Below are positions 100-30,147 of a stretch of DNA of 32,396 bases, piece by piece. Position numbers and translations under genes: made by a program. The DNA comes from a virus (lineage: Duplodnaviria > Caudoviricetes). The notes below the pieces were generated by a model. It ran no database searches and was not told the DNA's origin. It worked only from the letters and a program-made list of their open reading frames with translations. The stretch covers positions 1 through 32,396 of the IMG/VR virus record IMGVR_UViG_3300032281_000691. One strand, 5' to 3'. Positions within the stretch are counted from its first letter, which is position 1, and every line of letters starts with the position of its first letter.

Positions 100-779
100 A
101 AAAAATCCTTGAAATGTGTATTTAAAATATCAATTCTTCTATTATTTCCTGCACCCGTCAAGTGTACCAAAAATGATTCAGAATTCCATACACCAACTGG
201 TTCTGGTCTAGTTTCCCATCCCTGAGCATATTGTTGTTTTGAGGGAGTGGATCCAAGATATTTATGTTCTAAACTTTTAGTTCCAATTGAAAAATTTTTA
301 TGTATAACATTCAAAGTCTCTTGTTCGGAACTGAACGATGGACCTATTTTGTAGAATAATTCCAACAAGTTATCAGTATTATTTGTTTTTTGAACTATAA
401 AATTTCCAGTGCTAAATGATTCTTTCCACATCCAATCATAAGATGCAACAAATGTTGTATTATCATCCATAAAATCTTCAAGTCTATAATCATAATTTGT
501 TATTAATGAATCTGCATCTATCCACATCACTGCATCATATGATAACAACATTTCCATTGCTCTTATGAATCTTAATTGTCCTATATGTTTATCGCTGAAT
601 ATATTTCTAGGATCCTTTCCAAAGGATCGTAAGGACATCAAATCATAATTGTTATATTTTACATATTTATTTTTTGATGGAAGCGTAAGATCAAATACTT
701 CTTGCATATACGCATCGGTACATCCATCAGGCCTAATATCATCAGTATAACCAGTTAATAATAAAACACGCTTATTCAT
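96..779 (-). CDS. GT-A glycosyltransferase, GT34/Mnn10-like
   Basis: YDAVMWIDADSLITN DxD motif, FSTGNFIV, EQETLN and FLVHLTG resemble the galactosyl transferase GMA12/MNN10 family; lies in a sugar gene cluster. Confidence 0.7.
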   Translation of the reverse strand: MNKRVLLLTGYTDDIRPDGCTDAYMQEVFDLTLPSKNKYVKYNNYDLMSLRSFGKDPRNIFSDKHIGQLRFIRAMEMLLSYDAVMWIDADSLITNYDYRLEDFMDDNTTFVASYDWMWKESFSTGNFIVQKTNNTDNLLELFYKIGPSFSSEQETLNVIHKNFSIGTKSLEHKYLGSTPSKQQYAQGWETRPEPVGVWNSESFLVHLTGAGNNRRIDILNTHFKDFL

Positions 780-792
780 TATATCTCATTTC

Positions 793-2127: not shown

Positions 2128-2962
2128 GAATGCCCATTCCCCAATCATTCAAATTGGGAATATTATACTTTTCAATACTTTCTCTTATAAATTTTGCTTT
2201 GAAACTATTCTTACGATCATGGTTATCGTAGATCTTTGGATTAATTTTTAAGGGAAAATCAAAGTGACTATAGTTCCACATAAAATTATTAACAGATGCA
2301 TCATATGCGCTTGTGGGTATAGTGTCAATACCAAATCTAACACGATTTACATAATCACATATTTTCCAATAGTACTGCTTAAGTGCTACGGTATCTTTAC
2401 ATAACCATTGAAGGTGTGATATGAATATATTTGGAATTTCTATTCTACCTTGTTTACCTGGAACCGGTAAATGTTCAGAGTGCATTTGTAGATTTTTAAA
2501 TATTGCCCTTGAACTATAAGAACCAATTCTATCCTTATAGTTAACTCCCCAAGGACCATCAATTCTTATTGTATTTACATCGGTATATTGTATCCATCTA
2601 CTATGAATAAGAGTATCCTTATAACTATTCATAATATTTTCCAGATCTTCTTTGGATAAATTTCCATCGAAATATTCATCAGTATCCAAACAAACTATAT
2701 TCCCACTATGCTTAAAGGCCTCGTCATATAGTCTTTGTCGTATTTCAGATTCTATATTTGTTGTTATATCTTCTCTATTGATATTACTGTGCAATACAGA
2801 CAATATGTTATATTTTTTTGCATTATCCATTAAAAATTCATATGTTCCATCTGTACAAGAATCTACCATAAAAACAAAAGCATCGGAATATTTTTGCCAG
2901 TGAGGCATCATTTCCTGTATCAAAAAAAGTTCATCTCTAGTAATTGTTGTCTGAACAATCAT
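2099..2962 (-). CDS. Glycosyltransferase family 2-like protein
   Basis: N-terminal TITRDE, VDSCTDGT and CLDTDEYF DxD motif; ATGA overlap with the upstream gene. Confidence 0.75.
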   Translation of the reverse strand: MIVQTTITRDELFLIQEMMPHWQKYSDAFVFMVDSCTDGTYEFLMDNAKKYNILSVLHSNINREDITTNIESEIRQRLYDEAFKHSGNIVCLDTDEYFDGNLSKEDLENIMNSYKDTLIHSRWIQYTDVNTIRIDGPWGVNYKDRIGSYSSRAIFKNLQMHSEHLPVPGKQGRIEIPNIFISHLQWLCKDTVALKQYYWKICDYVNRVRFGIDTIPTSAYDASVNNFMWNYSHFDFPLKINPKIYDNHDRKNSFKAKFIRESIEKYNIPNLNDWGMGIHDGTYFKIY

Positions 2963-4446
2963 TTTTTATCCTCATACAAATAATGATACATTATCTCTTC
3001 GATGTATATGTGTGTTTTAAGTAAATTAGATTTTACCAATCTTTCCCAAAAGTTTGAATCTTCACCATCGCTGATATCTGGAAACCCTATTTGTTTTGCT
3101 ATATCTGCTTTTATTGGATTTAAATGATTTAATGGTCTGTGCTGAGTGCCTTTACTGTCTTTAAAACTATCTAAATTTGCCGCACTATGACAAAATAGCA
3201 ATGATGGTTCATTTTTATAATAAAACATTCCACAAAACCCAATACCGTCATAATCGTATGTGTCCATTATTAATAATAATTTTCTGAGATAAGATTCACT
3301 TATTATATCATCATCGTCTACGAATGAAATATATTTTGCAGTACAAGAATCCAAACATTCTTGTCTTTTTTTCCCTATGCTTTTAACTTTATTATCATGA
3401 TTAATAGTAACAAGTAAACGATTTTTATAAAGATAAGGACAATACTGATCTAGTAATTTAAGTAATCCATTTAACTTCTCTTTTCTTTCTGGAATAGTCA
3501 ATATGCATATGTTCCAAAGAATATCTTTTTTTGATTTCATTGTATCAATATAATTTTGTATCTCTACTTGTATTCTTTCAAAAAAACAAGAAGCATATTT
3601 TTGTGCCCTAATATAATTTTCCTCTATGAATGGTTTCATGCTTTCATATAATTGTTCATCAATAGAATTTACACTATTGATCAATTCCTGATAACTATTA
3701 ACTATTATCATCCCACGAACATCAAAAAATTCTGATATATTAGGACAACCAAAATAAATTGGAATAGTTTTAGTAACCAAACAGTCTATAAGTTTTTCAG
3801 TAAAATATGAATTTTCTCTAGAACTTTCTATTACTATACTAAATTGAGTTCTAAACAGATTTATCTTATCATCATTTGGCAATAATCCATCATGCAATGT
3901 ATTGGAAAAGATATTGTTATTTGTCGGTGATCTTGTGCTAGAATAAAATAAACTTGGAATTTTAATGTTTTGACGGGTGTTCCAAATATGCTGTCTTAAA
4001 TTATAACCTTCTTTGCCCAAATATGATGTTGTTATAAAGGAAACACCAAACACTTTATTCTTTACACTTTCGTATATTTTTTCATTAAAAACACCAAGCG
4101 AATCTAAATTAACTTTATCCTTATTCAACCATGTTGTTCCATATGGAAAAAAAACAGAATTAGAAACAGAATCTAATATTTCCTTTTCGCTGGTGAGAAT
4201 TAAATCATACTTGTGTGAATTTCTAATTATATTTTCATTTGTTTCTCTGTTAACGGAACTACTGGGTTCATTTGAGCAAATGAAAACTTTAAATCTACTT
4301 GGATCCTTAAATTGAATATTCACATAAGAAACATGGTGTCTCCTGGGCACATCTCCAAATCTAGTAAAGTGTATTTCGCATGGAGTATCTAGCGTTATTG
4401 CTTTAGAAGAAAAGTATGAACCATTAATAATAATAGAATCAGTCAT
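2959..4446 (-). CDS. Two-domain glycosyltransferase: GT10 (alpha-1,3-fucosyltransferase-like) fused to GT2
   Basis: GT10 signature FSIVIESSRENSYFTEKLIDCLVTKTIPIYFG, then a GT2-like domain ICILTIPERKEKL...KYISFVDDDD...GEDSNF. Confidence 0.78.
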   Translation of the reverse strand: MTDSIIINGSYFSSKAITLDTPCEIHFTRFGDVPRRHHVSYVNIQFKDPSRFKVFICSNEPSSSVNRETNENIIRNSHKYDLILTSEKEILDSVSNSVFFPYGTTWLNKDKVNLDSLGVFNEKIYESVKNKVFGVSFITTSYLGKEGYNLRQHIWNTRQNIKIPSLFYSSTRSPTNNNIFSNTLHDGLLPNDDKINLFRTQFSIVIESSRENSYFTEKLIDCLVTKTIPIYFGCPNISEFFDVRGMIIVNSYQELINSVNSIDEQLYESMKPFIEENYIRAQKYASCFFERIQVEIQNYIDTMKSKKDILWNICILTIPERKEKLNGLLKLLDQYCPYLYKNRLLVTINHDNKVKSIGKKRQECLDSCTAKYISFVDDDDIISESYLRKLLLIMDTYDYDGIGFCGMFYYKNEPSLLFCHSAANLDSFKDSKGTQHRPLNHLNPIKADIAKQIGFPDISDGEDSNFWERLVKSNLLKTHIYIEEIMYHYLYEDKK

Positions 4447-4447
4447 A

Positions 4448-5110
4448 TTATACCTTTAATAAATTAAATTGTATGTCTCTTTCCGGAAGACCCATTTCTC
4501 TTAGAGATTTTTCCTTTGAACTATTATTTGCTATACCCATAGTTATGTATGGTTTCATTTCCGGAGGTAGTTTATCTGTTGGCCAGATTGCATAATTTAC
4601 TGGTAATACTCCTAGTCTCAATCTCTTAAGAAACTCCGGTAAAACATCAAACAATAGCACTTCGTGATCAAATACTTTCGGACCAGTATTGGAAGCATTA
4701 TAATGACACTTATCAACCCAAAACTCAAGAAATTCAAATACTATAGATTTTGGTGTTAGATATATTGGTGAAGCCTTTGGTAGTTTAACATCGATCATCG
4801 ATGGAATAATGCCAGAATAAGCAAATATCATATCACAGTGATTTTCTTTATCATCAAATATGCTAAGTTCATTATGAATCAAAGAATCTATATCTAACCA
4901 AACTATAGGTTTATTTTTAAGTTTAAGCATGGTTAAAATAAATTCTGGTTTTCTTAAACAATTCATTCTATAACTACCACTACTCTCTAACTTTCTTATG
5001 TCATAGGGGACATTATGCTCTTCGCAGTTTTTTGCTAAACGAGCAGCATGATCACTATAATAAGTGTGTCCATCTATGTCGGAAAAAAATGATATAATTT
5101 CAGTTTTCAT
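4448..5110 (-). CDS. Nucleotide-diphospho-sugar transferase (GT-A fold)
   Basis: KPEFIL...IVWLDIDS DxD motif, DHEVL and LPVNYA. Start adjusted to the ATG at 5110 (MKTEIISFF), a TAATG overlap with the upstream stop. Confidence 0.65.
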   Translation of the reverse strand: MKTEIISFFSDIDGHTYYSDHAARLAKNCEEHNVPYDIRKLESSGSYRMNCLRKPEFILTMLKLKNKPIVWLDIDSLIHNELSIFDDKENHCDMIFAYSGIIPSMIDVKLPKASPIYLTPKSIVFEFLEFWVDKCHYNASNTGPKVFDHEVLLFDVLPEFLKRLRLGVLPVNYAIWPTDKLPPEMKPYITMGIANNSSKEKSLREMGLPERDIQFNLLKV

Positions 5111-5877
5111 TAAATATAGTTCCAATTTTTCTTAAATATTTTATTAATGTAGTCAAAATTTTGATACATTTTTTCACCACCTTTTCGTAATCTGGGATAA
5201 CAGTAAATTTTGTCAGTAGTATTTAGAACTTCAACAAGATAACACATTGAAGTTTCGACTGTATGAATCTCTTGTGCGTTTTCCAACAACCAACAAAAAT
5301 CAAATATGTGACAGGGGGATCCGTCATTGTATATAATTTTATATTCACTTTCCAAATTTATTTTGTAAGTATTGTATGGACTAGTGAAATACATGGTATT
5401 TACAAATATAAACTTCTCTCCCCTTTCAATCCCATATTTCTTTCTAAGAGAATCTTCTCTGTCTAATTTTCTCTTAAATTGAAAATATTTCTGCCAATCA
5501 TCAAAGGATATATTCAATATTTTATATTTTGAATACATAATGTCTATATCATTTGAATTAAATGAAGATGTTCTAAATGGATAATAGTGAATTACACCAC
5601 CACTAACGGGAGTGCTACTAAATGTATTTGATTTATAATTATCATACAAAACCTTATGCCATATTTTGACACTCTCGCTGAACTCTGCCTCGTTCAACGG
5701 AAAACTAAAATATGAAGTCTTGGGAGTTATCAAATATTCGTGAAGATAATTATATTTTGGATGTATTGGCCAAATAATATTATCCATTCTTTCTGATATC
5801 TCATATACTGCTTTCTGCAAAAAGAAGATGTCCCCCAATCCTCTAGCCTGATCAATTAATGCTATCCGCTTAGTCAT
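5110..5877 (-). CDS. Putative glycosyltransferase (GT-B/GT9-like N-terminal motif)
   Basis: ARGLGDIFF N-terminal motif and C-terminal LLENAQEIHTVETS resemble GT9-like proteins; cluster context. Confidence 0.5.
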   Translation of the reverse strand: MTKRIALIDQARGLGDIFFLQKAVYEISERMDNIIWPIHPKYNYLHEYLITPKTSYFSFPLNEAEFSESVKIWHKVLYDNYKSNTFSSTPVSGGVIHYYPFRTSSFNSNDIDIMYSKYKILNISFDDWQKYFQFKRKLDREDSLRKKYGIERGEKFIFVNTMYFTSPYNTYKINLESEYKIIYNDGSPCHIFDFCWLLENAQEIHTVETSMCYLVEVLNTTDKIYCYPRLRKGGEKMYQNFDYINKIFKKNWNYI

Positions 5878-6250
5878 TTTTATATCTTGGTAATATTTTT
5901 TCTTCTTTTAAGAGACTATTAGTTATTTCATTAATTTTTTGTTTTATGGAATATCTCTTGTCGTTAATTTTATAAACAGATCGTGATAGCAAAATAAACT
6001 CATCATCAAATGTGTTTTGACTTTCTTTGATTCTTAATTTATCTTCTATTTCCCATAATTCTAAATTAGTGGTGTAAAGAGATTCTAATATTTCTTCATC
6101 AATGTGCAACTGATCCACTAGTGGTTTAATTGCATTATACTCCTCATGAATATTAAAATACTTCATGGAAAATGGAATCGCTTTTCTTATTTTAATTTTT
6201 AAAATTGTATATTTGTCTACAATCTCACCATTAGACACTTCTATTTTCAT
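5870..6250 (-). CDS. Conserved helical protein, DUF6165-like, associated with glycosylation clusters
   Basis: MKIEVSNGEIVDKYTILKIK...LWEIEDKLR...RSVYKINDKR...EEK pattern recognised from memory of this family. Confidence 0.7.
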   Translation of the reverse strand: MKIEVSNGEIVDKYTILKIKIRKAIPFSMKYFNIHEEYNAIKPLVDQLHIDEEILESLYTTNLELWEIEDKLRIKESQNTFDDEFILLSRSVYKINDKRYSIKQKINEITNSLLKEEKILPRYKND

Positions 6251-7085
6251 TTTTAATAATATTAGTATAAAGAATATCGTCTGAAGACTTTAGTAATTTA
6301 ACTCTTTCTAAATTGTCCTTAACTGCCTCTAACTTACTTTCATATAATTCTGGAGTAAGTATAATAGGATCAAAGTCAGAAGTCAATTGAATTATTCCAT
6401 CTGAATTAAAGTGTTCAGATATATCGGGTGCTCCCCAGTAAATTGGTATAGTACCAGATGCGAAACAATCTGTTATCTTTTCTGTATAGTATGTCGAATA
6501 TGAATCATTTTCGATCACTATAGAAAATCTATATGGAACTGTTGCGTTAGATTTATCTGGCCAAATATTCTCACCATAACCAAATCTTGTGGTGCCAGCT
6601 GCGCCACCATAGACATCAATAACATCTTTGAACTTTTCTGCTACTATATGTCGGATTGCATGTCCAAATGTTATTTTTTTAGGAGAAGCAATCAAAGAAA
6701 CATTTTTAGTTTTCAATGGTAGATCTCTATAAATGCTCAACCAAGGTAAATTGCTACCGGCCGGACTATAGAGTATGTTTGGATATTTGCATAAACTTCG
6801 CTCTGAAACAAAAACATAATCAAAAGACTCACTTATTTTTTTCAACTCTTTTTCAAATAACTCTCGCGGGAAGGAAAGATGAAATATAGCCCTAGATTCA
6901 CAAACCCATGCTATTTTTTTCTCTCCTTCTTTCTTTGGTTCTTGTAATCCCAAAGCAATACCACGATCAATATAAACCTTTATTGGTCTATCCTGATCAG
7001 TCCATCTAAAAAGTTCTGGTAGTTTATTCGAACACGAAGAATATTCAACTGGAAACGGAGCACCTATCGCTTGTATCTCATTCAT
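6231..7085 (-). CDS. Glycosyltransferase family 10 (fucosyltransferase-like)
   Basis: YRFSIVIENDSYSTYYTEKITDCFASGTIPIYWG, the GT10 nucleotide-sugar binding signature. Confidence 0.82.
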   Translation of the reverse strand: MNEIQAIGAPFPVEYSSCSNKLPELFRWTDQDRPIKVYIDRGIALGLQEPKKEGEKKIAWVCESRAIFHLSFPRELFEKELKKISESFDYVFVSERSLCKYPNILYSPAGSNLPWLSIYRDLPLKTKNVSLIASPKKITFGHAIRHIVAEKFKDVIDVYGGAAGTTRFGYGENIWPDKSNATVPYRFSIVIENDSYSTYYTEKITDCFASGTIPIYWGAPDISEHFNSDGIIQLTSDFDPIILTPELYESKLEAVKDNLERVKLLKSSDDILYTNIIKNENRSV

Positions 7086-11451: not shown

Positions 11452-11486
11452 GTTTATAGTATATCACAAATAAATTAAATAGTCAA
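11452..11486 (-). promoter_or_regulatory. Sigma70-type promoter with extended -10 for a leaderless rnh transcript
   Basis: TTGACT (11481-11486), 17 nt, TGa-TATACT (11458-11463), 6 nt, ATG; no Shine-Dalgarno. Confidence 0.8.
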
Positions 11487-11797
11487 GTAGCAACCCAATG
11501 AAGACCATCATTATCACAAACTCTAGTATAAAGAAGTCCTACATCCGGATTAAACCAACGGTCACCTTCTGAAGAAACTTCAGGTTCTTCTGTTTGACAA
11601 TAAAATGTTGGTGTTGATGTTAATTTTTCCCATCCACTATTCTTAAATAATGGATTACTTCCCATTATATTTTTTGTGGCAATATAATTTATTCCATTGT
11701 AAGTAACCACAGAACCTTTGGCATATTCAATTAAACGACCATTTGGATCGTATTTTCTATAGTTTCCTACAAAATTTAAGTTATCTGCTTCGTTCAT
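11483..11797 (-). CDS. Small protein with a CBM5/12-like module and a phage fibre-type GDxWF repeat
   Basis: YAKGSVVTYNGINYIA...P....GW resembles chitin-binding type 3 modules; P....GDRWFNPDVGLLY...WVA resembles repeats in phage tail fibres; ATGA overlap with the upstream gene. Confidence 0.55.
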   Translation of the reverse strand: MNEADNLNFVGNYRKYDPNGRLIEYAKGSVVTYNGINYIATKNIMGSNPLFKNSGWEKLTSTPTFYCQTEEPEVSSEGDRWFNPDVGLLYTRVCDNDGLHWVAT

Positions 11798-12870
11798 TTT
11801 TGACTACTCAGGAATAAACAATGTTCGTTAATTCTTGATTTTGGTTTGGACTCTTTAGTATTTATAGAAGAAAATAATGTTTCAGTATATTTAAAGTTTA
11901 CAGAATTTAAGTTATTAATTTTAATAAACTTATCGAATCCACGAATCTTCTTAATACTTGATTTTTCTTCATCTACACCCAAAAGAGTAGTTCCCTTGAA
12001 TGAAAGCGTTTCGTTTGTTTTTGATTTATAGATTGTTAGTGATTTGGTCTTAATATTCAATACGACCACAGAAGAACAACCAACAATCTGCTCCGGTTTC
12101 ATGGAATTAATACCATTAAAGGATGGGAGATATTTGACCTTGGATGCAATTTGTTGTGGGGTCTTATTCTTTTTCTTTCTTGGCTTACGATTTTGTCGCT
12201 TTTCCTGAATCTTTGAATTGTAATAATTCAAAAGTTCTTCTTGTGTTTCAATGTAAGAAACCAATTGTGATTTAGTAAAGTACGAATACCCCTCTACCAA
12301 TTGATCATCCTTCTTATCCCTCGCAAGGTACAACTCATTTAACTTGTCTTCTATAAAATGAATAACCTCTGTATAAAAAGCAGGAGTAATTTCAAACTTA
12401 TCACAAGTTTTCTTTACATTGATATCTTTCTTTTTCTTTTTCTGAATTAGGGTAGAACATTCATCAATGAAAATATTAATATCTACAAGATGCTTGCACA
12501 ATGTATCTGCAAACCTCTTTGTTCGTTCTTCTATTGACTTATTCTTACTCTTTAGATAATCGGCATATTTGTTTTCTAACTTAAGTAGGAAATCATCAAA
12601 TATCTTCTTTTCAGTTTCTGGTATTGAAATGCCACGATATAGCATTCTTGCCCAGATACCGAATGGAGTATAATCTTTCGTTTTACCGTGAGAATAGATC
12701 ATAGGATCTCTCTTAAGATTGGCAACATATTCCGTCACCCATTTCTTATGATCCTTGGATGTGCTGATACCACGATAGGTATTATATGCGTTATAAACCT
12801 CTGCCTCGTACTCCTTAGCATCAATTGATGGAGCGGGAGTTGGTTCTTCAAATGTTTTTTTCTTTGCCAT
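11794..12870 (-). CDS. Conserved hypothetical protein of T4-like phages, Lys-rich
   Basis: QLVEGYS, RKPRKKK, SKVKY, SMKPEQIVG, LSFKGTTLLGVD and RINEHCLFL resemble an uncharacterised family of aquatic T4-like phages. Confidence 0.7.
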   Translation of the reverse strand: MAKKKTFEEPTPAPSIDAKEYEAEVYNAYNTYRGISTSKDHKKWVTEYVANLKRDPMIYSHGKTKDYTPFGIWARMLYRGISIPETEKKIFDDFLLKLENKYADYLKSKNKSIEERTKRFADTLCKHLVDINIFIDECSTLIQKKKKKDINVKKTCDKFEITPAFYTEVIHFIEDKLNELYLARDKKDDQLVEGYSYFTKSQLVSYIETQEELLNYYNSKIQEKRQNRKPRKKKNKTPQQIASKVKYLPSFNGINSMKPEQIVGCSSVVVLNIKTKSLTIYKSKTNETLSFKGTTLLGVDEEKSSIKKIRGFDKFIKINNLNSVNFKYTETLFSSINTKESKPKSRINEHCLFLSSQK

Positions 12871-14426
12871 TACTCTTTATAGAATACAAAAACTGGTTCG
12901 TATTTCAAGTATGTATTATTAACTTTGCAATAATTTTTACACTTTGGTTTGCCGTCTGAGTCTAGTCTATTTTGTCCCGGCATTCCTTCCATTGCCATCT
13001 TCATCGTTTCGACATATTTCATTCCCAAACTTTCCAAAATATCTCTAGAATCTTTTTCTAGTGGCAAATATTTACCGCCAATTTGAATATCTGCAATATT
13101 CCAAAGAAGATAACGATCTTTCTTCAACCATTTAACACATGTTTCTAGTGTCGGTCTTAAAAATCCATCTCGCCAAGAATCATAATTAGAAAACTTCTTA
13201 TATGACTGTGTATTATCATTTGAATATGCCTCTCTATTGAAATAGGGAGGAGAAGTAAATACAAGATCTACTTCCTTTGAAATATGTTTTCCTATTTCCT
13301 CAGAACCATACTGATACAACTCAAAGGTATGGGTGTCGCTAAAGAAAGAGTTACCTCTATATGTTCTAGTATTATAGAAGTTTGCTAAGTTGTGGTATTT
13401 TGACGAATTCTCTGAAAACCAGTTTTCGCTATTTGGATCAGTTCCGATATAGTGTATGCGAACACGATCAGACATAGACATGCAACCGAGAAGACGACCA
13501 CCCCAACCGCTAGAAGGGTCGTAAATAGTAAGTAACTTATTTCCTGTAATATGAGAAGTATATTTTTCATAAAGAAACTTTGCAGTAAGAGGTGGGAAGT
13601 TCACCGCAGGTTGAATATAACCAATCCTAAACGAAGGAAAACACTTTGGAAATATTCGTTGTCCCTTTTCATACACTCTAATATGGAAAACATCATCACT
13701 CTCGATGTTATGTATGTCAAAGGTTGAGTAATGACGATAAGAAAGTTTAGATTTCCACTTAAGAAATAAATCTTTGTCAAGAGACAGTATTCTAGATTGT
13801 TCTAGTTGAAAATAACCAGTATTCAGTCCATTCTTCTTCTTGTTCTTTTCTAGAATAAAATCATAACCCTGAAATATTTCAGGACTACTAAAGAATGCTT
13901 CCATCCATTCGTCGCCAGTAGATACATCAATGATTGAATATTTTGGATCGTTCTTAATTGAAGATAGAGCAAAATTATAGAAGGAATCTCTACGAATATG
14001 TCTCTTTGCACCCTTGATCATTCTAGGAAGATACTTATCATCCGCAAATAAATCATAGATTGAGTAACCAGTATCATTTTCGCTATAATTAATTCTGGTC
14101 TTGTACATATTAGAAAAGAACTGATCTGCTTCAGATCCAATTCTTGATTTATTGATAATTACATCTTTTGTTCCGGTTATCTCATCAACAAATTCAAATT
14201 GATGAATCGGATAACTAACAAGTTTATTAAACTCATCAATTATTTCTTGTTCGTTTTTACCAGTACGCGGGGGACAACCATAGGTATCCCATATATCAAG
14301 AATAGTTTTACGCATCTTCTTGACCCAATCTTCAAATTCGGGTTCAGTCATAGAAACAATGTCTTCATAAAAGACATTGATATCACTATTTAAAACATAT
14401 TCGTTCCGTTCGTAAAATGGTTTCAT
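12870..14426 (-). CDS. SAM-dependent amino-methyltransferase-fold protein (SPPY type; N4-cytosine/N6-adenine DNA MTase-like) with a long N-terminal extension
   Basis: Motif I-like YDPSSGWGGRLLG, YIGTDPN, motif IV DLVFTSPPYF, LLWNIAD, YEPVFVF. Start adjusted to the ATG at 14426 (MKPFYERN), an ATGA overlap with the PLP-enzyme stop. Confidence 0.85.
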   Translation of the reverse strand: MKPFYERNEYVLNSDINVFYEDIVSMTEPEFEDWVKKMRKTILDIWDTYGCPPRTGKNEQEIIDEFNKLVSYPIHQFEFVDEITGTKDVIINKSRIGSEADQFFSNMYKTRINYSENDTGYSIYDLFADDKYLPRMIKGAKRHIRRDSFYNFALSSIKNDPKYSIIDVSTGDEWMEAFFSSPEIFQGYDFILEKNKKKNGLNTGYFQLEQSRILSLDKDLFLKWKSKLSYRHYSTFDIHNIESDDVFHIRVYEKGQRIFPKCFPSFRIGYIQPAVNFPPLTAKFLYEKYTSHITGNKLLTIYDPSSGWGGRLLGCMSMSDRVRIHYIGTDPNSENWFSENSSKYHNLANFYNTRTYRGNSFFSDTHTFELYQYGSEEIGKHISKEVDLVFTSPPYFNREAYSNDNTQSYKKFSNYDSWRDGFLRPTLETCVKWLKKDRYLLWNIADIQIGGKYLPLEKDSRDILESLGMKYVETMKMAMEGMPGQNRLDSDGKPKCKNYCKVNNTYLKYEPVFVFYKE

Positions 14427-15154
14427 GCGCCTACATTCCAAAACAGAGCACCCGGTTTTGCGTATTGCTTCATAAAGGCCCATGCTTTGGCGTCATATGT
14501 GGGGGCGGAAGGAAAGGGAGGAGCATCAGCCGCTGCGACGGCCTGAAAGAAAGGAATGGCACACTTGAACATTTTTGCTCTCCCTAACTCCTTCGCCCCC
14601 ATTTTATGACCAACAGACACACAATTAAATTCAGCATTAGGCCATGCGGCCTGTAATCCTCTAGTTAGAGTTCCGCTCGATCCTACTGTCCAGACTTCTT
14701 TCGGTTGAACAGGAAGTTGTCTAGCCAGATCCCGTATGGAGTCCAATACCTCTGGACAATCAAACCCAATAGGAAACAATTTACGAGTAAAAGGATCTGA
14801 GTTAACATAATCACGCGCTCTTTTCTGAGTTACAGATAGCATACCGTTCTCTACCCAGTTCATTGTAGCACCGTATGATATTGCTTTCAACTGGTAAGGA
14901 TGAAGATTCTCCATCTTTCTTTTTGCCATAAACAATATACATTTCTTATTGAAATGCTGACATACTCTTGCCAACGATATCTGAGCATAACCAGTTGCAG
15001 GCGAAGAACCATAAACCAATTCATCGCCGACAAAATCCTTCACTAACGATTGAACAAATCTAGTTTTTGAACCACCATCAATAAGATCATCACGGACTAC
15101 TAAAAATCCATCATGTTCCATAATTACAGGAGGGGGATTTAATTCATCAATCAT
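14423..15154 (-). CDS. PLP-dependent enzyme, fold type II (ACC deaminase/D-cysteine desulfhydrase-like), compact phage form
   Basis: VVRDDLIDGGSKTR (Schiff-base Lys), VGSSGTLTRG phosphate loop, PTYDAKAW, LFWNVG. Confidence 0.85.
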   Translation of the reverse strand: MIDELNPPPVIMEHDGFLVVRDDLIDGGSKTRFVQSLVKDFVGDELVYGSSPATGYAQISLARVCQHFNKKCILFMAKRKMENLHPYQLKAISYGATMNWVENGMLSVTQKRARDYVNSDPFTRKLFPIGFDCPEVLDSIRDLARQLPVQPKEVWTVGSSGTLTRGLQAAWPNAEFNCVSVGHKMGAKELGRAKMFKCAIPFFQAVAAADAPPFPSAPTYDAKAWAFMKQYAKPGALFWNVGA

Positions 15155-16866
15155 AGCATTCTACTAAAATTGTTTTTCTTTTCGAATGAAATTGTATTTT
15201 GAAACTTATCAGCAAGTTGATCTGATTTGTGACTAATCACATAGATGTTCGATTTATCACTTACAGAATTTAAAAGTTTCATCAATTCTTCCATACCTAA
15301 AGTGTCCAGAGAAGAATCAAATACTTCATCAAGAATCAAAAGATTACAATTAACACTATTCTTTGCCCTGGCAATTTCTCTCCAAGCAAGTAAAAGTGCC
15401 AAATCAATTCTCATCTTTTCACCTTCGCTGAAATTCATATAACTCATTTCATCCCGATGACGACTCTTAATAGTTTCATTAAAATCTTCATCTAAAATAA
15501 ATTGCACGAAGAAATCCATAGAAGTTAAAAACTTGTTAATGTACTTATTCATAAAGGGAAGATAATACTTGATAATCTTTGCCTTTACTCCAGAGTCCTT
15601 TAGAAGATCAGAAGCATATTGATAATAGTGCTCCTCATCTTTCATTTCAATCTTCTTGGTTTCCATTTCGACTAAAGAAACCTTCATGGATTCTAACTTT
15701 CCCTTTTCTAGAATAATTTCTTCAGTTGAAATATTTGCCTTTTTTAAATCTTCAGAAAGGGTTTTTAGAAACTTCTTTCCATTATCAATTGATGTTTTCT
15801 TTTGAAGAAGTTGAATGTTCTTGGTTTGAACAAATGAAGAAGAAGTATTAATTTCTTCAACACGAGCATTATATTCCTGAATAGTTTTTTCTAATTCAGA
15901 AATTGCTTTTTCGTATTCTTCTTTCTTCTTATTTCTTTTCTTCAATTCCTTCTCCTTTACTTCTGAAGTAATTGATTGACAACAAGAAGGACATGTTTCG
16001 TTTTCTGTAAAGAAACTAATATCTTTAGAAAGCGAAGATAAGTTAACTCCAATCTTGGTTTTAAGAGTTTTAATTTCAGTTAACTTATCAAATACATTAT
16101 CTTTATCCTCTATAGAAGACAGTGTAATTGCTATAGATTTTTCTAATTCAGAGATATCATGTAAAAGATCAGCCAATTCAGATTCTATCTTTTGAATCTT
16201 TTCATTGGTATGTTCTATATCTTTATTGCTTCTAGTCTCTAAACTATTGATTAGATCATTCTTTGAATTAATCTTTTCTTTTTGAATCTCTATACTATTG
16301 TTTAACTCTCTAAGATTTTCTTTAAGAGCAGATAGTTTTCCCTTCAAAATCATATTCATAGAACTAAAAACATTGATATCCAAAATATTTTCAATAACTG
16401 CTCGGCGATCAGATGCATTTAATTGCATGAAAGGGACAAAAGATGAACTACCAAGAATCACCACTTGTGTGAATGTTTTGTAATTCATTTTAAGAATTTG
16501 TTCTTCCAGAACAGACTGATAATCTACACTCTTGGCATCTTGATTTAGAAGTTCACCATTTCTATGAATTTCAAATATCTTTGGGTTTAATCCTCTACGA
16601 ACAATATATTGTTCATTGCCCTTTGCAAATTCAATTTCAACTAAACAATTTTTAGAATTAATAGAATTTGCAAGTTGAGGAATATTAATCTTACGAAATG
16701 GTTTTCCAAACAAAGCAAAAGTAATAGAATCTAAAAAAGCAAAAGACTTACCACTCCCATTGCTTCCGCAGATGAGAGTGGTATTATTTTTGTCTAGATT
16801 CAATTCCGTAAAGGTATTACCAAAAGAACCAAAGTTCTTAAATTTAACCTTAGAAAATTTTATCAT
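15151..16866 (-). CDS. gp46: Recombination endonuclease ATPase subunit gp46 (Rad50/SbcC-like)
   Basis: Walker A GSNGSGKS, FTQVVILGSSSFVPFMQL, coiled coils with CPSC zinc hook, FSEGEK signature, LILDEVFD, ISHK. Confidence 0.96.
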   Translation of the reverse strand: MIKFSKVKFKNFGSFGNTFTELNLDKNNTTLICGSNGSGKSFAFLDSITFALFGKPFRKINIPQLANSINSKNCLVEIEFAKGNEQYIVRRGLNPKIFEIHRNGELLNQDAKSVDYQSVLEEQILKMNYKTFTQVVILGSSSFVPFMQLNASDRRAVIENILDINVFSSMNMILKGKLSALKENLRELNNSIEIQKEKINSKNDLINSLETRSNKDIEHTNEKIQKIESELADLLHDISELEKSIAITLSSIEDKDNVFDKLTEIKTLKTKIGVNLSSLSKDISFFTENETCPSCCQSITSEVKEKELKKRNKKKEEYEKAISELEKTIQEYNARVEEINTSSSFVQTKNIQLLQKKTSIDNGKKFLKTLSEDLKKANISTEEIILEKGKLESMKVSLVEMETKKIEMKDEEHYYQYASDLLKDSGVKAKIIKYYLPFMNKYINKFLTSMDFFVQFILDEDFNETIKSRHRDEMSYMNFSEGEKMRIDLALLLAWREIARAKNSVNCNLLILDEVFDSSLDTLGMEELMKLLNSVSDKSNIYVISHKSDQLADKFQNTISFEKKNNFSRML

Positions 16867-16870
16867 AATA

Positions 16871-17848
16871 TCAATTCAACTTATTTTCAGGAACAACCAT
16901 AGATCTAAATGTAGGATTGGGATCGATGGATGTTACCTCAGATTGTAACACATCTGGTGTAGTAGTTTGCATAAAACTTTCAAAATTTTCATCAGATTGT
17001 ACAGGAATAGTCTCCACTATTGGTTTATCATCCTGCGGAAGAGAAGAAGTGGGTTCAACCTTTATTAGTTTTCCAACCGGAAGTCCTTCCTTTACTCTGC
17101 GATCATAATCTTCTGCTCTTGCCTTGCCCATTTCAATTAATTTTTCCGTAGGCATTTCATATATCTTTTCACCCTTTTCGTTTATAGTACCATTTCTACA
17201 ACCACATCCTCGCTTTTTCTCTTGCGCTGATTGCGGATAATCATGTGGTCCTACTTGATATCCTTTCTGAATAGACTTTACTACATAACTAAGTCCTTCA
17301 GGTTGAACCTTGGGATTATTAGCCTCATTGCGTAATGTTTTAGCATAACCAGAACTATAATACCAAGTAATTTCTGTATCCTTCTTTATATCCGTCAACG
17401 CATAGAATCTATAAAGTTTAAATGCATTGTCCTGTACAATATAAGCATTTGGTTTTTCAGAATGATTGTAAATTGAACCATTTCCAAACATTACCGCCAT
17501 GCTCTTACCATTCTTTTGACATATATTGCAATTGCAATCCCATGTCATAGCATAACGATGAAGTGCTTGATCTTTATTATTAGACCAAGTAGTGTCTAGT
17601 AATAAGACTGGAAATTCTTCAATGACATCACCAGCACTTATGTCTTCGTTTGCAAATACACCATAACCACTTATATTAGACTTTCCAATATAAGTCTTAT
17701 TGATGAACCTTTCCTTTTTTGCGTAACTATTTGTATTGTAATCGAATGAACCATGATAATGCGAATGACTAGTATATTCTGGTTCAGTTTCCATAACCTG
17801 TATGTTGTTATTGCCAGTAAGACCCGAATTTGTATTATTTTCACTCAT
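16871..17848 (-). CDS. SET-domain protein (putative protein lysine methyltransferase)
   Basis: SET motif I SNISGYGVFANEDISAG, motif III YNHSEKPN, motif IV ALTDIKKDTEITWYY; CNCNIC insert; GCGC downstream; low-complexity C-terminus. Confidence 0.88.
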   Translation of the reverse strand: MSENNTNSGLTGNNNIQVMETEPEYTSHSHYHGSFDYNTNSYAKKERFINKTYIGKSNISGYGVFANEDISAGDVIEEFPVLLLDTTWSNNKDQALHRYAMTWDCNCNICQKNGKSMAVMFGNGSIYNHSEKPNAYIVQDNAFKLYRFYALTDIKKDTEITWYYSSGYAKTLRNEANNPKVQPEGLSYVVKSIQKGYQVGPHDYPQSAQEKKRGCGCRNGTINEKGEKIYEMPTEKLIEMGKARAEDYDRRVKEGLPVGKLIKVEPTSSLPQDDKPIVETIPVQSDENFESFMQTTTPDVLQSEVTSIDPNPTFRSMVVPENKLN

Positions 17849-18900
17849 AGTGTTAAACTCTCCATATATAAATCTTTAATAATAATTTTTAACTTAGTTT
17901 TGTCTGATATATGTTCTAAATTATCGATCTCTTTATTTATAATTGATATAGTATCCTCTGATATGTCTATATCTATTGGATTTTGCTTATCTGTATATTC
18001 TTCAACTATTGTTAATTGTTGAGGATTTAATGTATAAATTGCATCAATGAACTTATCAAATGCAAATGGTTTTGTTTTATTTGAAACAATGATCTTGATG
18101 AAACCATTTTTATATTGAGAAAAATCAGTAGAGATTATAGAATCAATACCATCCTGTGTGGAATCATCATATTTAATTAAATGGAATATCTTATTAGGAT
18201 TTTTAATAAATTCAATATTTCTAGTTTTTGTATCTAAAACATGAAATCCCTTTGGACTATTCATATCCCCAAAATTCAATTCATATTGAGTACCGAGATA
18301 ATGAATATTACCATTATTCTGCTTCAAATGAAAATGACCAGATAAAACTAATTCAAATCTTTCAAATATTGATTTATTTAATCCAGATGGATGGACAACA
18401 CCATTCATTACCTGAAAACCACTAATCTCAAAATGTCCTCCAATAATTGGACATTTACAAGATTTAATAAAATCTAAACATTCCTTTTCGTTATCTTTTG
18501 CAACCCAAGGAATAATTCCAATACATAATCCATCATAATCGATTGCTGTTGGTGTTTCTACAATAGTAACAATATCTGATTCATTCAAAAAAAGTTCATT
18601 AATAGAATTTAAACTATTAGTATTTTTATAATAAGTATCATGATTACCAATAGTAATATGAGTTTTTATACCATTATCAATGAGTGGTTTGAAGAATCGT
18701 TTTCTTACTTGAGAAAGTGTATTAAAATTTACAAACTTCCTGCGATCTAAAAGATCACCAAGATGAATTACATTTTTAATGTTATTTTCTTTAAGATATG
18801 GAAAGAATATCTTCTCAAAGAAATCTAAAGATTGATCTAGAAAAAATGGAGAATCGTTTCTAATACCAAAATGCGTATCATTTATTATTGCAATTTTCAT
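17845..18900 (-). CDS. gp47: Recombination endonuclease nuclease subunit gp47 (Mre11/SbcD-like)
   Basis: DTHFG, HLGDLLDRRK, GNHDTYYKN, GHFE and SGHFH metallophosphoesterase motifs. Confidence 0.96.
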   Translation of the reverse strand: MKIAIINDTHFGIRNDSPFFLDQSLDFFEKIFFPYLKENNIKNVIHLGDLLDRRKFVNFNTLSQVRKRFFKPLIDNGIKTHITIGNHDTYYKNTNSLNSINELFLNESDIVTIVETPTAIDYDGLCIGIIPWVAKDNEKECLDFIKSCKCPIIGGHFEISGFQVMNGVVHPSGLNKSIFERFELVLSGHFHLKQNNGNIHYLGTQYELNFGDMNSPKGFHVLDTKTRNIEFIKNPNKIFHLIKYDDSTQDGIDSIISTDFSQYKNGFIKIIVSNKTKPFAFDKFIDAIYTLNPQQLTIVEEYTDKQNPIDIDISEDTISIINKEIDNLEHISDKTKLKIIIKDLYMESLTL

Positions 18901-19487
18901 TCAAATAACCTATTGGACTTACTTTTATTTTTCTTTTTTCTTTTCTTTCTTTGTTTTGGTTCTAGATTATTGAGATCTTGTTCACTTAGAAAGAAAGTCT
19001 TTTGTAAAAATTCCGTATAGGTGGAGGAACCCTGATTTTCCTTCAACCAGTCTACAAATTTACCATCTGGATCATTCATCTGCAAGGACTTATATTTTAT
19101 ATAAGCTTGTTTTTTTTCTTTTTCTATACGTCTCAGAAATGCATAATAAATTATTTGAGTAAAGTATGAGAATGGATTTTTGGATTTCTTTGGATCAAAA
19201 TTATGAGCATATAGAAGACAGTTTTCTATACCATCACCGACCATATCTTCTCTAAATGGATAGTTAATAAAATTAGGTCTATAGGAAAGATGTTCAGCAA
19301 TCTTTAAAAAACATTCGGCAATATAATCTGTAACTGGGGGTCTACCCTCATCACATTCTTCTGCTTCTTTTACTTTCTTTTTCCAATCTGTCATTTCTTT
19401 ACAGAAACGCTGATTGTCAACATAATGTTTTAATGTTTTTGAATCTTCTATATCTTCTTCTTGTTTTGGTTTCTTTTTCTTTCCCAT
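18897..19487 (-). CDS. gp55: Late transcription sigma factor gp55
   Basis: HYVDNQRF, YIAECFLKIAEHLSYRPNFINY, MVGDGIENC, NPFSYFTQIIYYAFLRRIEKEKKQ. Confidence 0.96.
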   Translation of the reverse strand: MGKKKKPKQEEDIEDSKTLKHYVDNQRFCKEMTDWKKKVKEAEECDEGRPPVTDYIAECFLKIAEHLSYRPNFINYPFREDMVGDGIENCLLYAHNFDPKKSKNPFSYFTQIIYYAFLRRIEKEKKQAYIKYKSLQMNDPDGKFVDWLKENQGSSTYTEFLQKTFFLSEQDLNNLEPKQRKKRKKKNKSKSNRLFE

Positions 19488-22237: not shown

Positions 22238-22271
22238 GCTTAGATTATATCACATAATCGGCAGAAATCAA
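22238..22271 (-). promoter_or_regulatory. Sigma70-type promoter with extended -10 for a leaderless uvsY transcript
   Basis: TTGATT (22266-22271), 16 nt ending TGTGA, TATAAT (22244-22249), 6 nt, ATG. Confidence 0.78.
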
Positions 22272-22852
22272 GCGGCAGTTATACCTTGTATTTCATAATG
22301 AGTATACGAGAATGTAGCAGATGCTACAACTGCATCCACCGCAGGAAGTGTTGAATCAAAATCTATTCCGGTTAATGATATTGGAAATAAATTGTAAAAA
22401 TTAACATTTATGATTGGTTTATATGCACTGTTAAAAACAGTTAAAAGTGCAGAAGATACTTTTTGATGTTCTTTTAAAATATCAGAATATGCATTTGTAT
22501 CGTTAGATAAATCACGAATCCAATTGTATATTTCTAACCAATTTTTCATTTCTTCGTCAACTACAAACCCAATTGCTAAGTCACCAAATACATGTCTAGT
22601 TCCAGGTCTTTTTATATCAATTGCAGTAGGATTAGATTGAATGCTTATGCCCATTGATAATTCTGGTATATTTGCCCTTTGACAAAAATATGTAAATGTT
22701 GGACATCTATTGATTAAAAATAGAAACTTATTATTGGTTAGTTTATTTCTGTTTTCTGGTTGATATGGATTCTTTAGTAAGATATCTCCAGGTAATTGAT
22801 TTAACAAATCAATAGGTAAATTTCCAAGATATTCTAATATGTTATTTGACAT
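22268..22852 (-). CDS. gp3: Tail tube terminator / tail completion protein gp3
   Basis: FLFLINRCPTFTYFCQRANIP, FVVDEEMKNWLEIYNWI, FPISLTGIDFD; conserved gp23-gp3-uvsY-uvsW order. Confidence 0.9.
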   Translation of the reverse strand: MSNNILEYLGNLPIDLLNQLPGDILLKNPYQPENRNKLTNNKFLFLINRCPTFTYFCQRANIPELSMGISIQSNPTAIDIKRPGTRHVFGDLAIGFVVDEEMKNWLEIYNWIRDLSNDTNAYSDILKEHQKVSSALLTVFNSAYKPIINVNFYNLFPISLTGIDFDSTLPAVDAVVASATFSYTHYEIQGITAA

Positions 22853-22857
22853 ATAAG

Positions 22858-22865
22858 TATGTATA
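22858..22865 (-). promoter_or_regulatory. Variant late promoter TATACATA upstream of gp3
   Basis: TATACATA directly after the gp23 terminator and 5 nt before the gp3 ATG. Confidence 0.6.
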
Positions 22866-22897
22866 AAAAAACAGGGAGGGGTTTTGCCCCTCCCTGC
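22865..22897 (-). terminator. Rho-independent terminator after gp23
   Basis: Minus strand CAGGGAGGGG-CAAAA-CCCCTCCCTG followed by TTTTTTT. Confidence 0.95.
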
Positions 22898-22923
22898 TAC
22901 TGAACCTTATTCAGTCTTTGTTA

Positions 22924-24366
22924 TCAGACGATGTATCCGCCGGTCTGTCCGTGGAGATTATCAACGCGGAATAGACGGTAGTAAACATTGCTGTCTGAGT
23001 CTAGACCATCAGTACCAGTTTGATTTGCCCATGAGGTACGACCCTTAGCGAATGGGTTTGCAACCATTCCGTAACGAGTCTTGAAGCCAATCTTGGGTTG
23101 GAAGGTATCCTGATTTACTGCACGAACCATCTGTAGTGGAACATATGGGCAGTAGAAGAATCCTGCGTCATAAGGAGTTGAACCCTTATAACCAACGCAA
23201 ACGAAGTTCTGGTTGGTATTGACGAATGGATCGATGTAAACCTTCATCTTACCGGCAAGAATACCAGCGAAGACATTACCAGTGTCGTCAACATTTAGGT
23301 TGGCGGTCATGGCAGGAGCAAGGTTTAGGAAACCACCCATTGCTAGGGCGCTTGCAACATCTGCAGAGCAGATGATGAAGTTACCCTTGCCTCTACGGGT
23401 TTGCTTGGCGATAACATTTGCTTCGCGTTCAATCTGGAACATTAGACCACGGAAACGTTCTGCGCTCCAACGACCATCTGAGTCATTTAGGATGTCGTAG
23501 ATACCACCAGTACCGCTTGAGTAGTTAGCAAGGTCTGGTTGCTTGCAACCGGTCTTTGCAACATGGTACATTGCACGGATAATTTCGCGGTTGATTTCGT
23601 TGAGGATTTCGGTGCTAAGAATATTAGCAAGTTCTGCCTCAGCGTCAAGTCCGTGAACGGCCTTGAGGTCTTGTGCAAGTTCGGTGGTGTACTCTGCCTT
23701 TAGTGCTCTGGTCTTTGCTTCCACGGCAACACGCTCAATGCTGAATGCCATTTGCTGGAATGATGGAGTACCAGTGCCGAGGTTTTCTGCATTTGCAGTT
23801 GAGAAACCACGGAAGGTTGAAAGTGGGTCATTCGCACCAGATCGAGTTGGCCACTTAGCACCAGTTGGAGCACCATTTAGATTGAGGAATGTTCCACCTT
23901 CTAGTGGTGAGAATCCGAAGGTAATACCAGAAGTTGAACCTGAAGCACCAGCGAATGCTGGGAATGGTTCATCGAAGTGTGATTCAAACCCGGCCTGTGA
24001 ATCATACTTGCTACGCATTGCAAAGATAAGTCCGGTTGGAGCAGTCATTGGCTGCACACCGCAAATATCATATGCAACAACATTAGGCATTGCACGACGA
24101 ACTAGTGAGATTAGAATTGGATCATAACCTGCTAGCGAAGTGTTGGTTGCCGATGAAACAGTAGGAACTGAGAATGCACCACCCATTGCGTTGACTGGGG
24201 CTTCAACTAGGTACTGTTCTCTCATTGCATTCTTCTGGTTTTCTAGAAGAACTGCAGTGACTCTCTTCTTGTGAATGTCATTAATTTCTTCGAGTTCCTT
24301 GTGATCTAGCACAGGACTCCACTTTTCTACTAAAGTATCATACGGGGTTGTCGAATTAAAATCCAT
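22924..24366 (-). CDS. gp23: Major capsid protein gp23
   Basis: LVEKWSPVL, LISLVRRAMP, GVQPMTAPTGLIFAMRS, RALKAEYTTELAQDLKAVHGLDAEAEL, FYCPYVPL, FQPKIGFKTRYG; AAGGAG RBS; LVE/A candidate gp21 cleavage site. Confidence 0.99.
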   Translation of the reverse strand: MDFNSTTPYDTLVEKWSPVLDHKELEEINDIHKKRVTAVLLENQKNAMREQYLVEAPVNAMGGAFSVPTVSSATNTSLAGYDPILISLVRRAMPNVVAYDICGVQPMTAPTGLIFAMRSKYDSQAGFESHFDEPFPAFAGASGSTSGITFGFSPLEGGTFLNLNGAPTGAKWPTRSGANDPLSTFRGFSTANAENLGTGTPSFQQMAFSIERVAVEAKTRALKAEYTTELAQDLKAVHGLDAEAELANILSTEILNEINREIIRAMYHVAKTGCKQPDLANYSSGTGGIYDILNDSDGRWSAERFRGLMFQIEREANVIAKQTRRGKGNFIICSADVASALAMGGFLNLAPAMTANLNVDDTGNVFAGILAGKMKVYIDPFVNTNQNFVCVGYKGSTPYDAGFFYCPYVPLQMVRAVNQDTFQPKIGFKTRYGMVANPFAKGRTSWANQTGTDGLDSDSNVYYRLFRVDNLHGQTGGYIV

Positions 24367-28908: not shown

Positions 28909-30147
28909 TTAAGCACGAGCTGATAAATCATCATTTAGATTTTTATTAGTGAATGTAATTCTAACGTAATTGATTGCTATTGTTGGTTTGACTAAGATAT
29001 CGGCTACAAAGATTCTTGCCTGAACTAGTTCAGGTGGATTATTTGTTTCGTCGCATATGATTCTAAAATCAGTGATGCCTCTTTGACCTTTCACTGTATT
29101 TAGAACAGTGCTGGCAGCAAGAACGAATCGTGATCTAGTAATTGCATCATTAATTTCGAATAGAATACTTCTTGCGATTGGATTAATTACTTTTCTTAGA
29201 TAGATGAACAATCTAGAAACATTGATTCTAGAAAGAGTTGAGGTATCTGCTTGTCCAGTTTTATCACCGAAAAGAAGTGTTCCTTCACCGGGGAAAGTTA
29301 CCACTGGATTAATACCCGCATCAAAGAGAGTGTCTTGCTGTGTAACTGATGGATTTTCCAATAAACGAACAACATTTAAAATTCTTCCTCTTACTCTACC
29401 TGCAGGGGAGAACCAGGGGAATGAATCTCTATCGCATCTAGTTATACAACCAGCAACATCTGGAGTCAGATTTGTTAGAATTAGTTTAGTTGCATCCAAA
29501 GCGCCTTGACCAACACCATTTAGGTGATATTTTGATCCGGCAACATTTACAAAGAATTCAGTTTCTGTTCCGCTAACTTTAGATGTATCAGTTACACTTC
29601 TATGAACAACGCCGAGTGCAGGAAGTTCAGATATTGATTTAGCATCTGTTAGAGTGATTAAGTCTTGCTCATAACCAGTTGCAGTATCACCCATGAATGC
29701 TACATCAAAATTAATGTCTTTAAGAGAAGCTAGATTATCTGTAGTATTGGATACAGTTCCAGTATTTCCAACAAAGCATGCTCCACCATATTGAAGGAAG
29801 TTGTGAACCGCCCACCATTCTTTTTGCCAAGGTTTAGTGGCCCCTGCCCCGCCGATATCAATATGCTCGGCCGCGCAGGCGCCTATTGCTGCCTGTAGGG
29901 TTGCTCCATACCAATATCCAGAACTTAATCCTTTTAGATTATTTTCTGTATAAGTCTTTAGTCTACCAAACCAATCCTGAATGCTTTCGGCAAGCAAAAG
30001 ACCTTGTTGTTTTTCTCCGGTTATTCCTAAGTCATGTGCAAGTCTATTACGAGAAACCATAGCACCACGACCGGGACTTGTATTTTCCCCGATTGGTGCC
30101 ACTAACGATTCATCTATTACCTTTATCGAAACATTTGGTCGTGCCAT
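28909..30147 (-). CDS. gp18: Tail sheath protein gp18 (short form, 412 aa)
   Basis: NFLQYG, PWFSPAG, INPVVTFPGEGTLLFGDKT, RINVSRLF, FEINDAITRSRF, CDETNNPP, KPTIAINYV. Confidence 0.93.
   Translation of the reverse strand: MARPNVSIKVIDESLVAPIGENTSPGRGAMVSRNRLAHDLGITGEKQQGLLLAESIQDWFGRLKTYTENNLKGLSSGYWYGATLQAAIGACAAEHIDIGGAGATKPWQKEWWAVHNFLQYGGACFVGNTGTVSNTTDNLASLKDINFDVAFMGDTATGYEQDLITLTDAKSISELPALGVVHRSVTDTSKVSGTETEFFVNVAGSKYHLNGVGQGALDATKLILTNLTPDVAGCITRCDRDSFPWFSPAGRVRGRILNVVRLLENPSVTQQDTLFDAGINPVVTFPGEGTLLFGDKTGQADTSTLSRINVSRLFIYLRKVINPIARSILFEINDAITRSRFVLAASTVLNTVKGQRGITDFRIICDETNNPPELVQARIFVADILVKPTIAINYVRITFTNKNLNDDLSARA

Follow-up and report, generated by a model that had tools for sequence, protein, structure and literature searches.

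A SET-domain protein with a conserved C-terminal peptide encoded between the Mre11- and Rad50-like genes of T4-like phages

Results

The gp47-gp46 interval

The DNA analysed here, referred to as the window, is a 32,396-nucleotide fragment of a T4-like phage whose identified genes all lie on the minus strand. Sequencing runs that contain this DNA are labelled as lake, freshwater or unspecified metagenomes. At positions 16871-17848 (-) the window carries an intact open reading frame encoding 325 amino acids, which comprise a SET domain, a linker and a short C-terminal peptide, in a slot that is conserved in relatives. Upstream in the same gene run lie gp55, the late sigma factor (18897-19487, -; phrog_234, E 1.1e-60), and gp47, an Mre11-like nuclease (17845-18900, -; phrog_100); downstream is gp46, a Rad50-like ATPase (15151-16866, -; phrog_77). 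The start of the SET gene shares four nucleotides (17845-17848) with the gp47 stop, and a further four separate its end from the gp46 ATG at 16866; both arrangements had been noted, and the reading frame is real. The annotated gp46 proteins closest in coverage and identity are those of cyanophages, at 44-46%. A single metatranscriptome contig covers 175 nt of it (16916-17090) with three differences, which is too little to be given weight.

Several other genes of the window and its relatives deserve description. Residues 11-15 of gp46 (16822-16836, -) form a loop, NFGSF, with Gly at residue 13 in this gp46 group; in yeast Rad50 it is Arg13 that contacts ATP (PMC12343972), the two residues being matched here by position and not by alignment. 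In one relative (L205:1734-3400) gp46 is interrupted immediately downstream of the Walker A motif, apparently by an intein with a homing endonuclease, itself in pieces. Beyond gp46 the window encodes a 243-aa PLP-type enzyme (14423-15154, -; phrog_7093) and a 537-aa N6/N4 DNA-methylase-like protein (12870-14483, -), a pair for which no good solved homologue was found. The pair follows gp46 in L001-L029 (where visible), in G002 and in L046, where a small SET gene lies between its members, and it is possibly a DNA-modification module. A sugar-modification island (96-7085, -) includes several glycosyltransferases, a DegT aminotransferase and DUF6165, and a tail-sheath gene of 412 aa (28909-30147, -; 402 aa in a relative) aligns with sheath profiles through their C-terminal part alone. 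In the relative G001, two adjacent genes (L164:8121-9466) have PEP-CTERM-like sorting tails, a resemblance left unconfirmed by Pfam and NCBIfam; the Atlas neighbours of the first are clusters of PEP-CTERM-type surface proteins from mixed phyla, and the tails are a possible clue to the host.

The SET domain

Residues 61-164 (17357-17668, -) constitute a SET domain of the vSET/Set7 type. The PF00856 profile, which had been proposed as a check, matches these residues with an E value of 9.6e-16, scoring 58.5 bits where the cut-off is 22.4, and it matches all 35 aligned sequences at E 0.01 or better. Every motif that had been named was found: GYGVFA at residues 61-66, CNCNIC at 105-110, YNHSEKPN at 127-134 (17447-17470, -), EITWYY at 159-164 and GCGC at 214-217. 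The hallmark motifs of SET proteins are given as NHxxxPN and E-L/I-x-x-x-Y (PMC3980110), and they are matched by YNHSEKPN and EITWYY. Among solved proteins, phmmer matched SpSet7 (5h6z; the best, E 2.2e-7), vSET (1n3j) and PFL0690c (4rz0). When a predicted model of the window protein was searched with Foldseek, the top match was vSET (3kma; E 3.3e-10, TM 0.85 over the target), and a probability of 1.00 was returned for vSET, PFL0690c, Set7 and MLL1; the core of this model, in blocks 41-80 and 111-170, has pLDDT values of 61-92, and the mean of the whole model is only 51.7. The SET fold that had been suggested is thus borne out, and the window protein is a member of the SET family by profile, fold and motifs. 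Its best sequence and fold matches lie in the vSET/Set7-like group; it lacks pre-SET and canonical post-SET zinc regions, has no further Pfam domain, and its NH motif contains no Cys.

In alignment with vSET, residues N128/H129, Y99, E159, Y164 and Y168 correspond to N69/H70, Y50, E100, Y105 and Y109. Of 33 aligned family members, some of them library proteins whose genomic context was not seen, 29-32 retain each of these active-site residues. Within the cofactor-binding motif YNHSEKPN, N128 is present in 31 of the 33 sequences, H129 in 30, and P133 and N134 in all. Y164, which lies in the stretch E159-Y168 (17345-17374, -), is found in 32 of 33; its counterpart, Y105 of vSET, we take to be the catalytic Tyr, and we likewise assume the functional roles of the other aligned vSET residues. 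Judged by these intact residues, the window protein most probably performs SAM-dependent lysine methylation. H97/R98 stand where vSET has E48/D49, an acidic pair in the substrate groove that presumably binds the basic histone tail, and Arg or Lys occupies position 98 in 29 of 33 members. By its lack of the acidic pair, the window protein is classed as something other than an orthologue of vSET, the H3K27 enzyme.

Two groups of cysteines had been noted. The CNCNIC insert (17519-17536, -), of the form CxCxxC, is indeed present in the window protein but is variable rather than a constant of the family, occurring in 19 of 33 members; since the other 14 have fewer of these cysteines or none, the case for zinc binding is so far weak. 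The GCGC sequence after the domain (17198-17209, -) appears in relatives as a CxC or CxxC pair, with C215 in 29 and C217 in 26 of 33, and this downstream pair is retained in degenerate SET proteins as well.

The linker and the C-terminal peptide

The remainder of the protein had been described as a long low-complexity tail. That description fails, with a 40-residue entropy of 3.5-3.7 bits against 3.9-4.0 in the domain. The tail is instead composed of a variable linker (residues 179-313; 16910-17314, -), predicted to be mostly disordered with pLDDT mostly below 50, and a conserved C-terminal peptide starting FRSMVVPE (16874-16909, -). Among relatives the linker differs widely in length and has a relaxed dN/dS. 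The near-invariant FRSM[VI]VP[ED], in turn, is the most conserved motif besides the active site, and the initial protein search recovered 19 sequences, the query counted in, all of which have FRSMVVP unchanged. It is conserved at the protein level, with pN 0.038 and pS 0.69 across 20 genes and Arg codons that include AGA, CGT and AGG. In the single predicted model the tail has a pLDDT of about 40-44 and is unplaced, which has no bearing on whether it binds a partner.

Simpler origins for the peptide were considered and set aside. It is not a duplicated piece of gp46 or gp47, to which it has no profile similarity (E 0.38 and 0.76). A self-inhibiting pseudo-substrate carrying Met in place of Lys is unlikely, as SET-less forms persist and Arg stands at the Met position in 5 of 33. 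Neither a gp46 ribosome-binding site nor an alternative start fits the distances of 32-152 nt and the synonymous codon variation. The FRS of the peptide resembles the NFGSF loop of gp46, yet 61 of 91 NFGSF-type loci have no peptide.

The peptide is homologous to a stand-alone microprotein of relatives. A DNA pattern for the FRSM peptide matched 87 loci, many of which have no SET domain and only a short open reading frame of about 35-55 aa between gp47 and gp46, a state that we call mini. A protein search for the microprotein yielded 56 clusters (P0246-P0301) of 34-62 aa, most of them seen without genomic context; FRSM is present in 54, and three resemble broken SET ends. A second motif further upstream, A-D-E-L/F-L-F, occurs in 44 of the 56 and is absent from the window protein. 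Among 7,999 candidates scored, the longer proteins bearing the peptide were SET proteins in 20 of 20 cases. In curated families the microprotein had no PHROG match below E 0.18 (19 members searched), and no Pfam family is recorded for the 56 clusters.

The first motif of the microprotein ends in L-L-F-E, the DNA polymerase of G001 (L164:25-624) ends in E-S-L-F-S, and gp55 proteins, including that of the window (18897-19487), end in L-F-E. Protein ends of the L-F-E or L-F-S type bind the gp45 clamp in T4. As a weak lead, the microprotein may also bind gp45, through an L-L-F-E-type motif that is missing in the window SET protein.

Occupancy of the slot

In 175 loci with both neighbours visible, the slot held a SET gene in 91, a mini in 18, another gene in 18 and nothing in 48; this sample was collected partly via the motif, and the counts are not frequencies. 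A fairer sample was drawn with a gp46-start pattern, which gave 120 stretches from 15 of 64 collection parts, with gp47 visible in 91. Script calls for these 91 were 61 empty, 18 SET, 6 mini and 6 other. Revision by hand removed L254 and L263 from the SET class (a different, longer insert), assigned L306 and L318 to degenerate SET and moved L269, which has a GTG start, to mini, resulting in 61 empty, 18 SET (4 degenerate), 7 mini and 5 other. Degenerate SET genes occupy the slot in L091, L092, L094, L306 and L318, and the complete ones (L091, L092, L306 and L318) retain the Cys pair and an FRS or FKS tail. Unrelated occupants in L084-L090 are a pyrimidine-dimer glycosylase-like gene (PF03013) and a gene for a 95-aa, very Arg/Lys-rich protein.

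A gp47 tree of 82 of the 120 distinct sequences, made by a quick method with distant sequences dropped, contains a branch with support 99 that holds 45 SET loci, 10 minis, G002 and one empty lineage. G002 is a mini that spans an assembly gap and has ungapped equivalents in L241 and L249; L082/L083 have an empty slot within the SET clade. The mini state requires at least four changes on the gp47 tree and on a gp46 tree of 54 rows. The nesting of several minis among SET carriers suggests that the SET domain was lost repeatedly while the peptide was kept; at the root, it is just as likely that an older microprotein captured a SET domain. Of the two units, the peptide is the one that is older or persists better, and the enzyme is an optional addition. 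Neither is essential, since 61 of the 91 relatives sampled, and L082/L083 as well, leave the slot vacant.

Conservation, selection and exchange

A scan of viral contigs found 74 SET loci, of which 44 have at least 40% identity and visible T4 core genes; the remaining 30 match SET more distantly and lie outside the gp47-gp46 slot. Conservation of the order gp47-SET-gp46, which had been proposed as a check, holds in 42 of the 44 related loci, which are redundant rather than independent; two loci end before both neighbours come into view. In a tree (FastTree, 129 columns) the slot proteins group on a single branch (support 93), together with two library proteins whose context was not seen, and the slot SET gene is retained across gp47 identities of 49-100%. 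A GTDB scan returned only three distant cellular SET proteins. Near-neutral decay is contradicted, and purifying selection indicated, by a domain dN/dS of 0.02-0.23 in 10 of 13 pairs, the other three being saturated at silent sites; in L021, a stop codon separates the SET domain from the tail.

Over uvsW-orf221, four relatives (L007, L008, L016 and L017) match the window at 94-100% identity, whereas their identity is 75-82% in gp47 and 26-62%, at the nucleotide level, in the SET gene. gp47 and the SET gene have been exchanged as one block between near-identical genomes. Likewise swapped are gp3 and gp23 (22268-24366) and a 104-aa gene (11483-11797), at 66-90% against about 100% in the flanks.

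A putative late promoter

The sequence TATAAATA, a putative late-promoter consensus, lies at 17934-17941 (-) in the 3' end of gp47, 93 nt before the SET start. The late promoter of T4 and cyanophages is NATAAATA (PMC2984593); the site at 17934-17941 has a T4-type late-promoter sequence, and the window encodes gp55. In the relative G001, NATAAATA precedes 14 of 108 open reading frames, compared with about 0.9 expected. Within the window TATAAATA is not enriched by count (4 found, 5.2 expected), and the argument for a late promoter rests on position and codon choice. Because the gp47 site overlaps Ile-Asn-Lys codons, 113 distinct gp47 ends were compared for codon choice: among those whose protein sequence permits it, ATAAATA is used in 21 of 34 SET loci and in none of 16 SET-less loci, against a background of 34 in 153 (nominal p for promoter against SET state 2.4e-5, not corrected for kinship). 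The consensus is missing in 24 of 45 SET loci, and scans for sigma-70 promoters and terminators gave chance-level results only. The early or middle expression originally proposed agrees with the position of the gene within the gp55-gp47-gp46 run, but it is incomplete, since the late-promoter consensus tracks the presence of SET. In the window's lineage the gene likely has a late promoter, beyond read-through from the gp55-gp47 run.

Discussion

The conserved parts of this protein, a SET domain with an intact active site and a peptide that also exists alone, suggest how it may work. The peptide, which also occurs as a separate protein, probably acts in trans as a docking unit. T4 gp46/47 is the counterpart of Mre11/Rad50 and resects DNA ends (PMC3016280). 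This complex is our first candidate for the partner because the peptide is seen only in the gp47-gp46 slot and because the complex resects DNA ends; judging from gene position only, the chance that the partner is gp46/gp47, or a recombination protein directly attached to it, is slightly better than even. The peptide would dock on the phage Mre11-Rad50 machinery, the flexible linker would hang the SET enzyme from this partner-binding peptide, and the tether would concentrate the enzyme on gp46/gp47 or on proteins at DNA ends, with a methylation substrate on or beside the complex. Taken as a whole, a SET methyltransferase tethered by its peptide to gp47/gp46, methylating the complex or adjacent proteins, probably late in infection, is the reading that we favour over its rivals, tentatively and at somewhat below an even chance. 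A more specific version is a doubtful possibility: the FRSM microprotein could be a third accessory subunit or regulator of phage Mre11-Rad50, and its SET-fused form either a late switch that controls DNA-end processing through lysine methylation or a shield, methylating those host factors that attack the ends of phage DNA.

The original prediction looked to host proteins (nucleoid, transcription, translation or defence) as targets, for which we found no evidence; under this explanation the peptide would serve only to localise the enzyme, or its partner would be some other hub. vSET, the top structural match, silences host chromatin according to a review (PMC7019647), and the SET gene is the most divergent of its region, swapped at 26-62% nucleotide identity between flanks of 94-100%. 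Such allele swapping would be expected of a host-facing gene too and counts against the gp46/gp47 reading. Slot position can also be passive, since the slot accepts unrelated genes such as the pyrimidine-dimer glycosylase, and a search for a covarying substrate Lys in gp46/gp47 gave nothing convincing: Lys at the six candidate positions is still found in 23-50% of SET-less sequences, and the analysis is uninformative as one mini clade dominates. Against a host-directed enzyme stand the replacement of vSET E48/D49 by H97/R98 (29 of 33 members have a basic residue, Arg or Lys, at position 98), a late promoter ill-suited to early takeover unless the protein is packaged, and the persistence of the lone peptide in the slot, which this explanation leaves unaccounted for. 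An anatomy in which a separable, conserved peptide goes with the gp47/gp46 slot favours the phage recombination machinery over host targets, and we regard a host-directed role as rather unlikely.

Other readings give the enzyme or the peptide a lesser part. The FRSM motif could work in cis, setting gp46 translation as a nascent-peptide or coupling element, with SET as a passenger acting on an unrelated target. The motif was seen in no place other than directly before gp46, with a single occurrence in the window and a single one in the called open reading frames of 157 kb of G001, and in 14 of 15 minis (one unmeasured) the distance from its start to the gp46 ATG is 32-37 nt. In 14 SET loci, however, this distance is 34-152 nt and in six of them at least 50 nt, and the microprotein has its second conserved motif further upstream, so that a cis element appears improbable. 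That the domain serves mainly as a non-catalytic lysine-binding or scaffold module is suggested by the persistence of at least two groups of slot proteins without the GxG, NH or Tyr positions (L091/L092, L306/L318, and P0122, whose context was unseen); we think it quite improbable, because the window protein and about 29-30 of 33 members retain each catalytic-site residue. Together with the PLP enzyme (14423-15154) and the DNA-methylase-like protein (12870-14483), the SET enzyme might act on a modified DNA base or a small molecule and methylate an amine there, an idea supported by the smaller SET gene that L046 carries between its PALP enzyme and methylase-like gene. This too is highly improbable, since L046 SET falls outside the slot clade, L030-L045 have a slot SET without such genes beside gp46, and G002 (a record 54% complete) has both with only the microprotein. 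Repeated loss or truncation, as in the L021 stop between domain and tail, might finally be taken for a decaying or neutral insertion, but the dN/dS of 0.02-0.23 refutes this for the window's lineage and the slot gene is kept across gp47 identities of 49-100%, leaving it next to no probability.

If the tethered-methyltransferase reading is true, phages regulate recombination-dependent replication through protein methylation, a so far undescribed form of control of phage recombination, and there is, outside eukaryotes, a minimal peptide that binds Mre11-Rad50. The candidate target is concrete, consisting of two soluble neighbour proteins and a 40-residue peptide that can be produced and assayed without the host. 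Even with a wrong target, a conserved microprotein family without curated annotation has been found. In the mostly open-access literature covered, we found nothing on phage SET protein function or on a gp47-SET-gp46 operon. The arrangement, a known enzyme fold and an uncharacterised microprotein inside the phage Mre11-Rad50 operon, is real, selected and previously undescribed.

SET domains in phages are less exotic than had been implied, being annotated already in Stenotrophomonas phage Ps15 (ORF62; PMC9025141) and in uncultured Caudovirales entries. Small SET proteins of tailed phages are found in Ps15, cyanophage P-RSM6, Vibrio phage GR11A and a megaphage (LR756501); those of Ps15 and P-RSM6 are of about 100 aa, stand-alone and annotated only, and their genes lie among small hypothetical genes in Ps15 and adjoin baseplate genes in P-RSM6. 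None of 50,697 records gave a cultured-phage match to the slot protein, the matches being uncultured megaphage records and to the domain only, and the nearest Atlas clusters to the window SET protein are 92% and 69% viral. vSET (A612L of chlorovirus PBCV-1, a homodimeric enzyme; 1n3j, 3kma) is likewise virus-encoded and has the same minimal SET fold (28% identity by Foldseek), with the N69/H70, Y50, E100, Y105 and Y109 positions kept in the window protein. It is a packaged protein of 119 aa that trimethylates H3K27 of its algal host (PMC7019647), whereas the window protein is a bacteriophage protein of 325 aa with basic residues at the E48/D49 positions and has, in addition, the linker and a tail that is conserved. 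S. pombe Set7 (5h6z) and Plasmodium PFL0690c (4rz0), near-top fold matches, share the small-SET architecture, with Tyr-x-x-x-Trp in the insert, but are eukaryotic histone enzymes in an unrelated context and without the peptide module.

For the proposed target, archaeal Mre11:Rad50 is reported to be lysine-methylated (Kish et al. 2016, via the review PMC7226565), and for chromatin proteins the same review points to a crenarchaeal enzyme of broad specificity. The target complex is the same; the archaeal system differs in being cellular and hyperthermophilic and in having no operon-encoded tethered SET protein. The third Mre11-Rad50 subunit, Nbs1/Xrs2, is described in one source as eukaryote-only (PMC12343972). 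Its resemblance to the phage arrangement is one of analogy only, with no sequence relationship claimed: a flexible protein would use a short motif to bring another activity to the complex.
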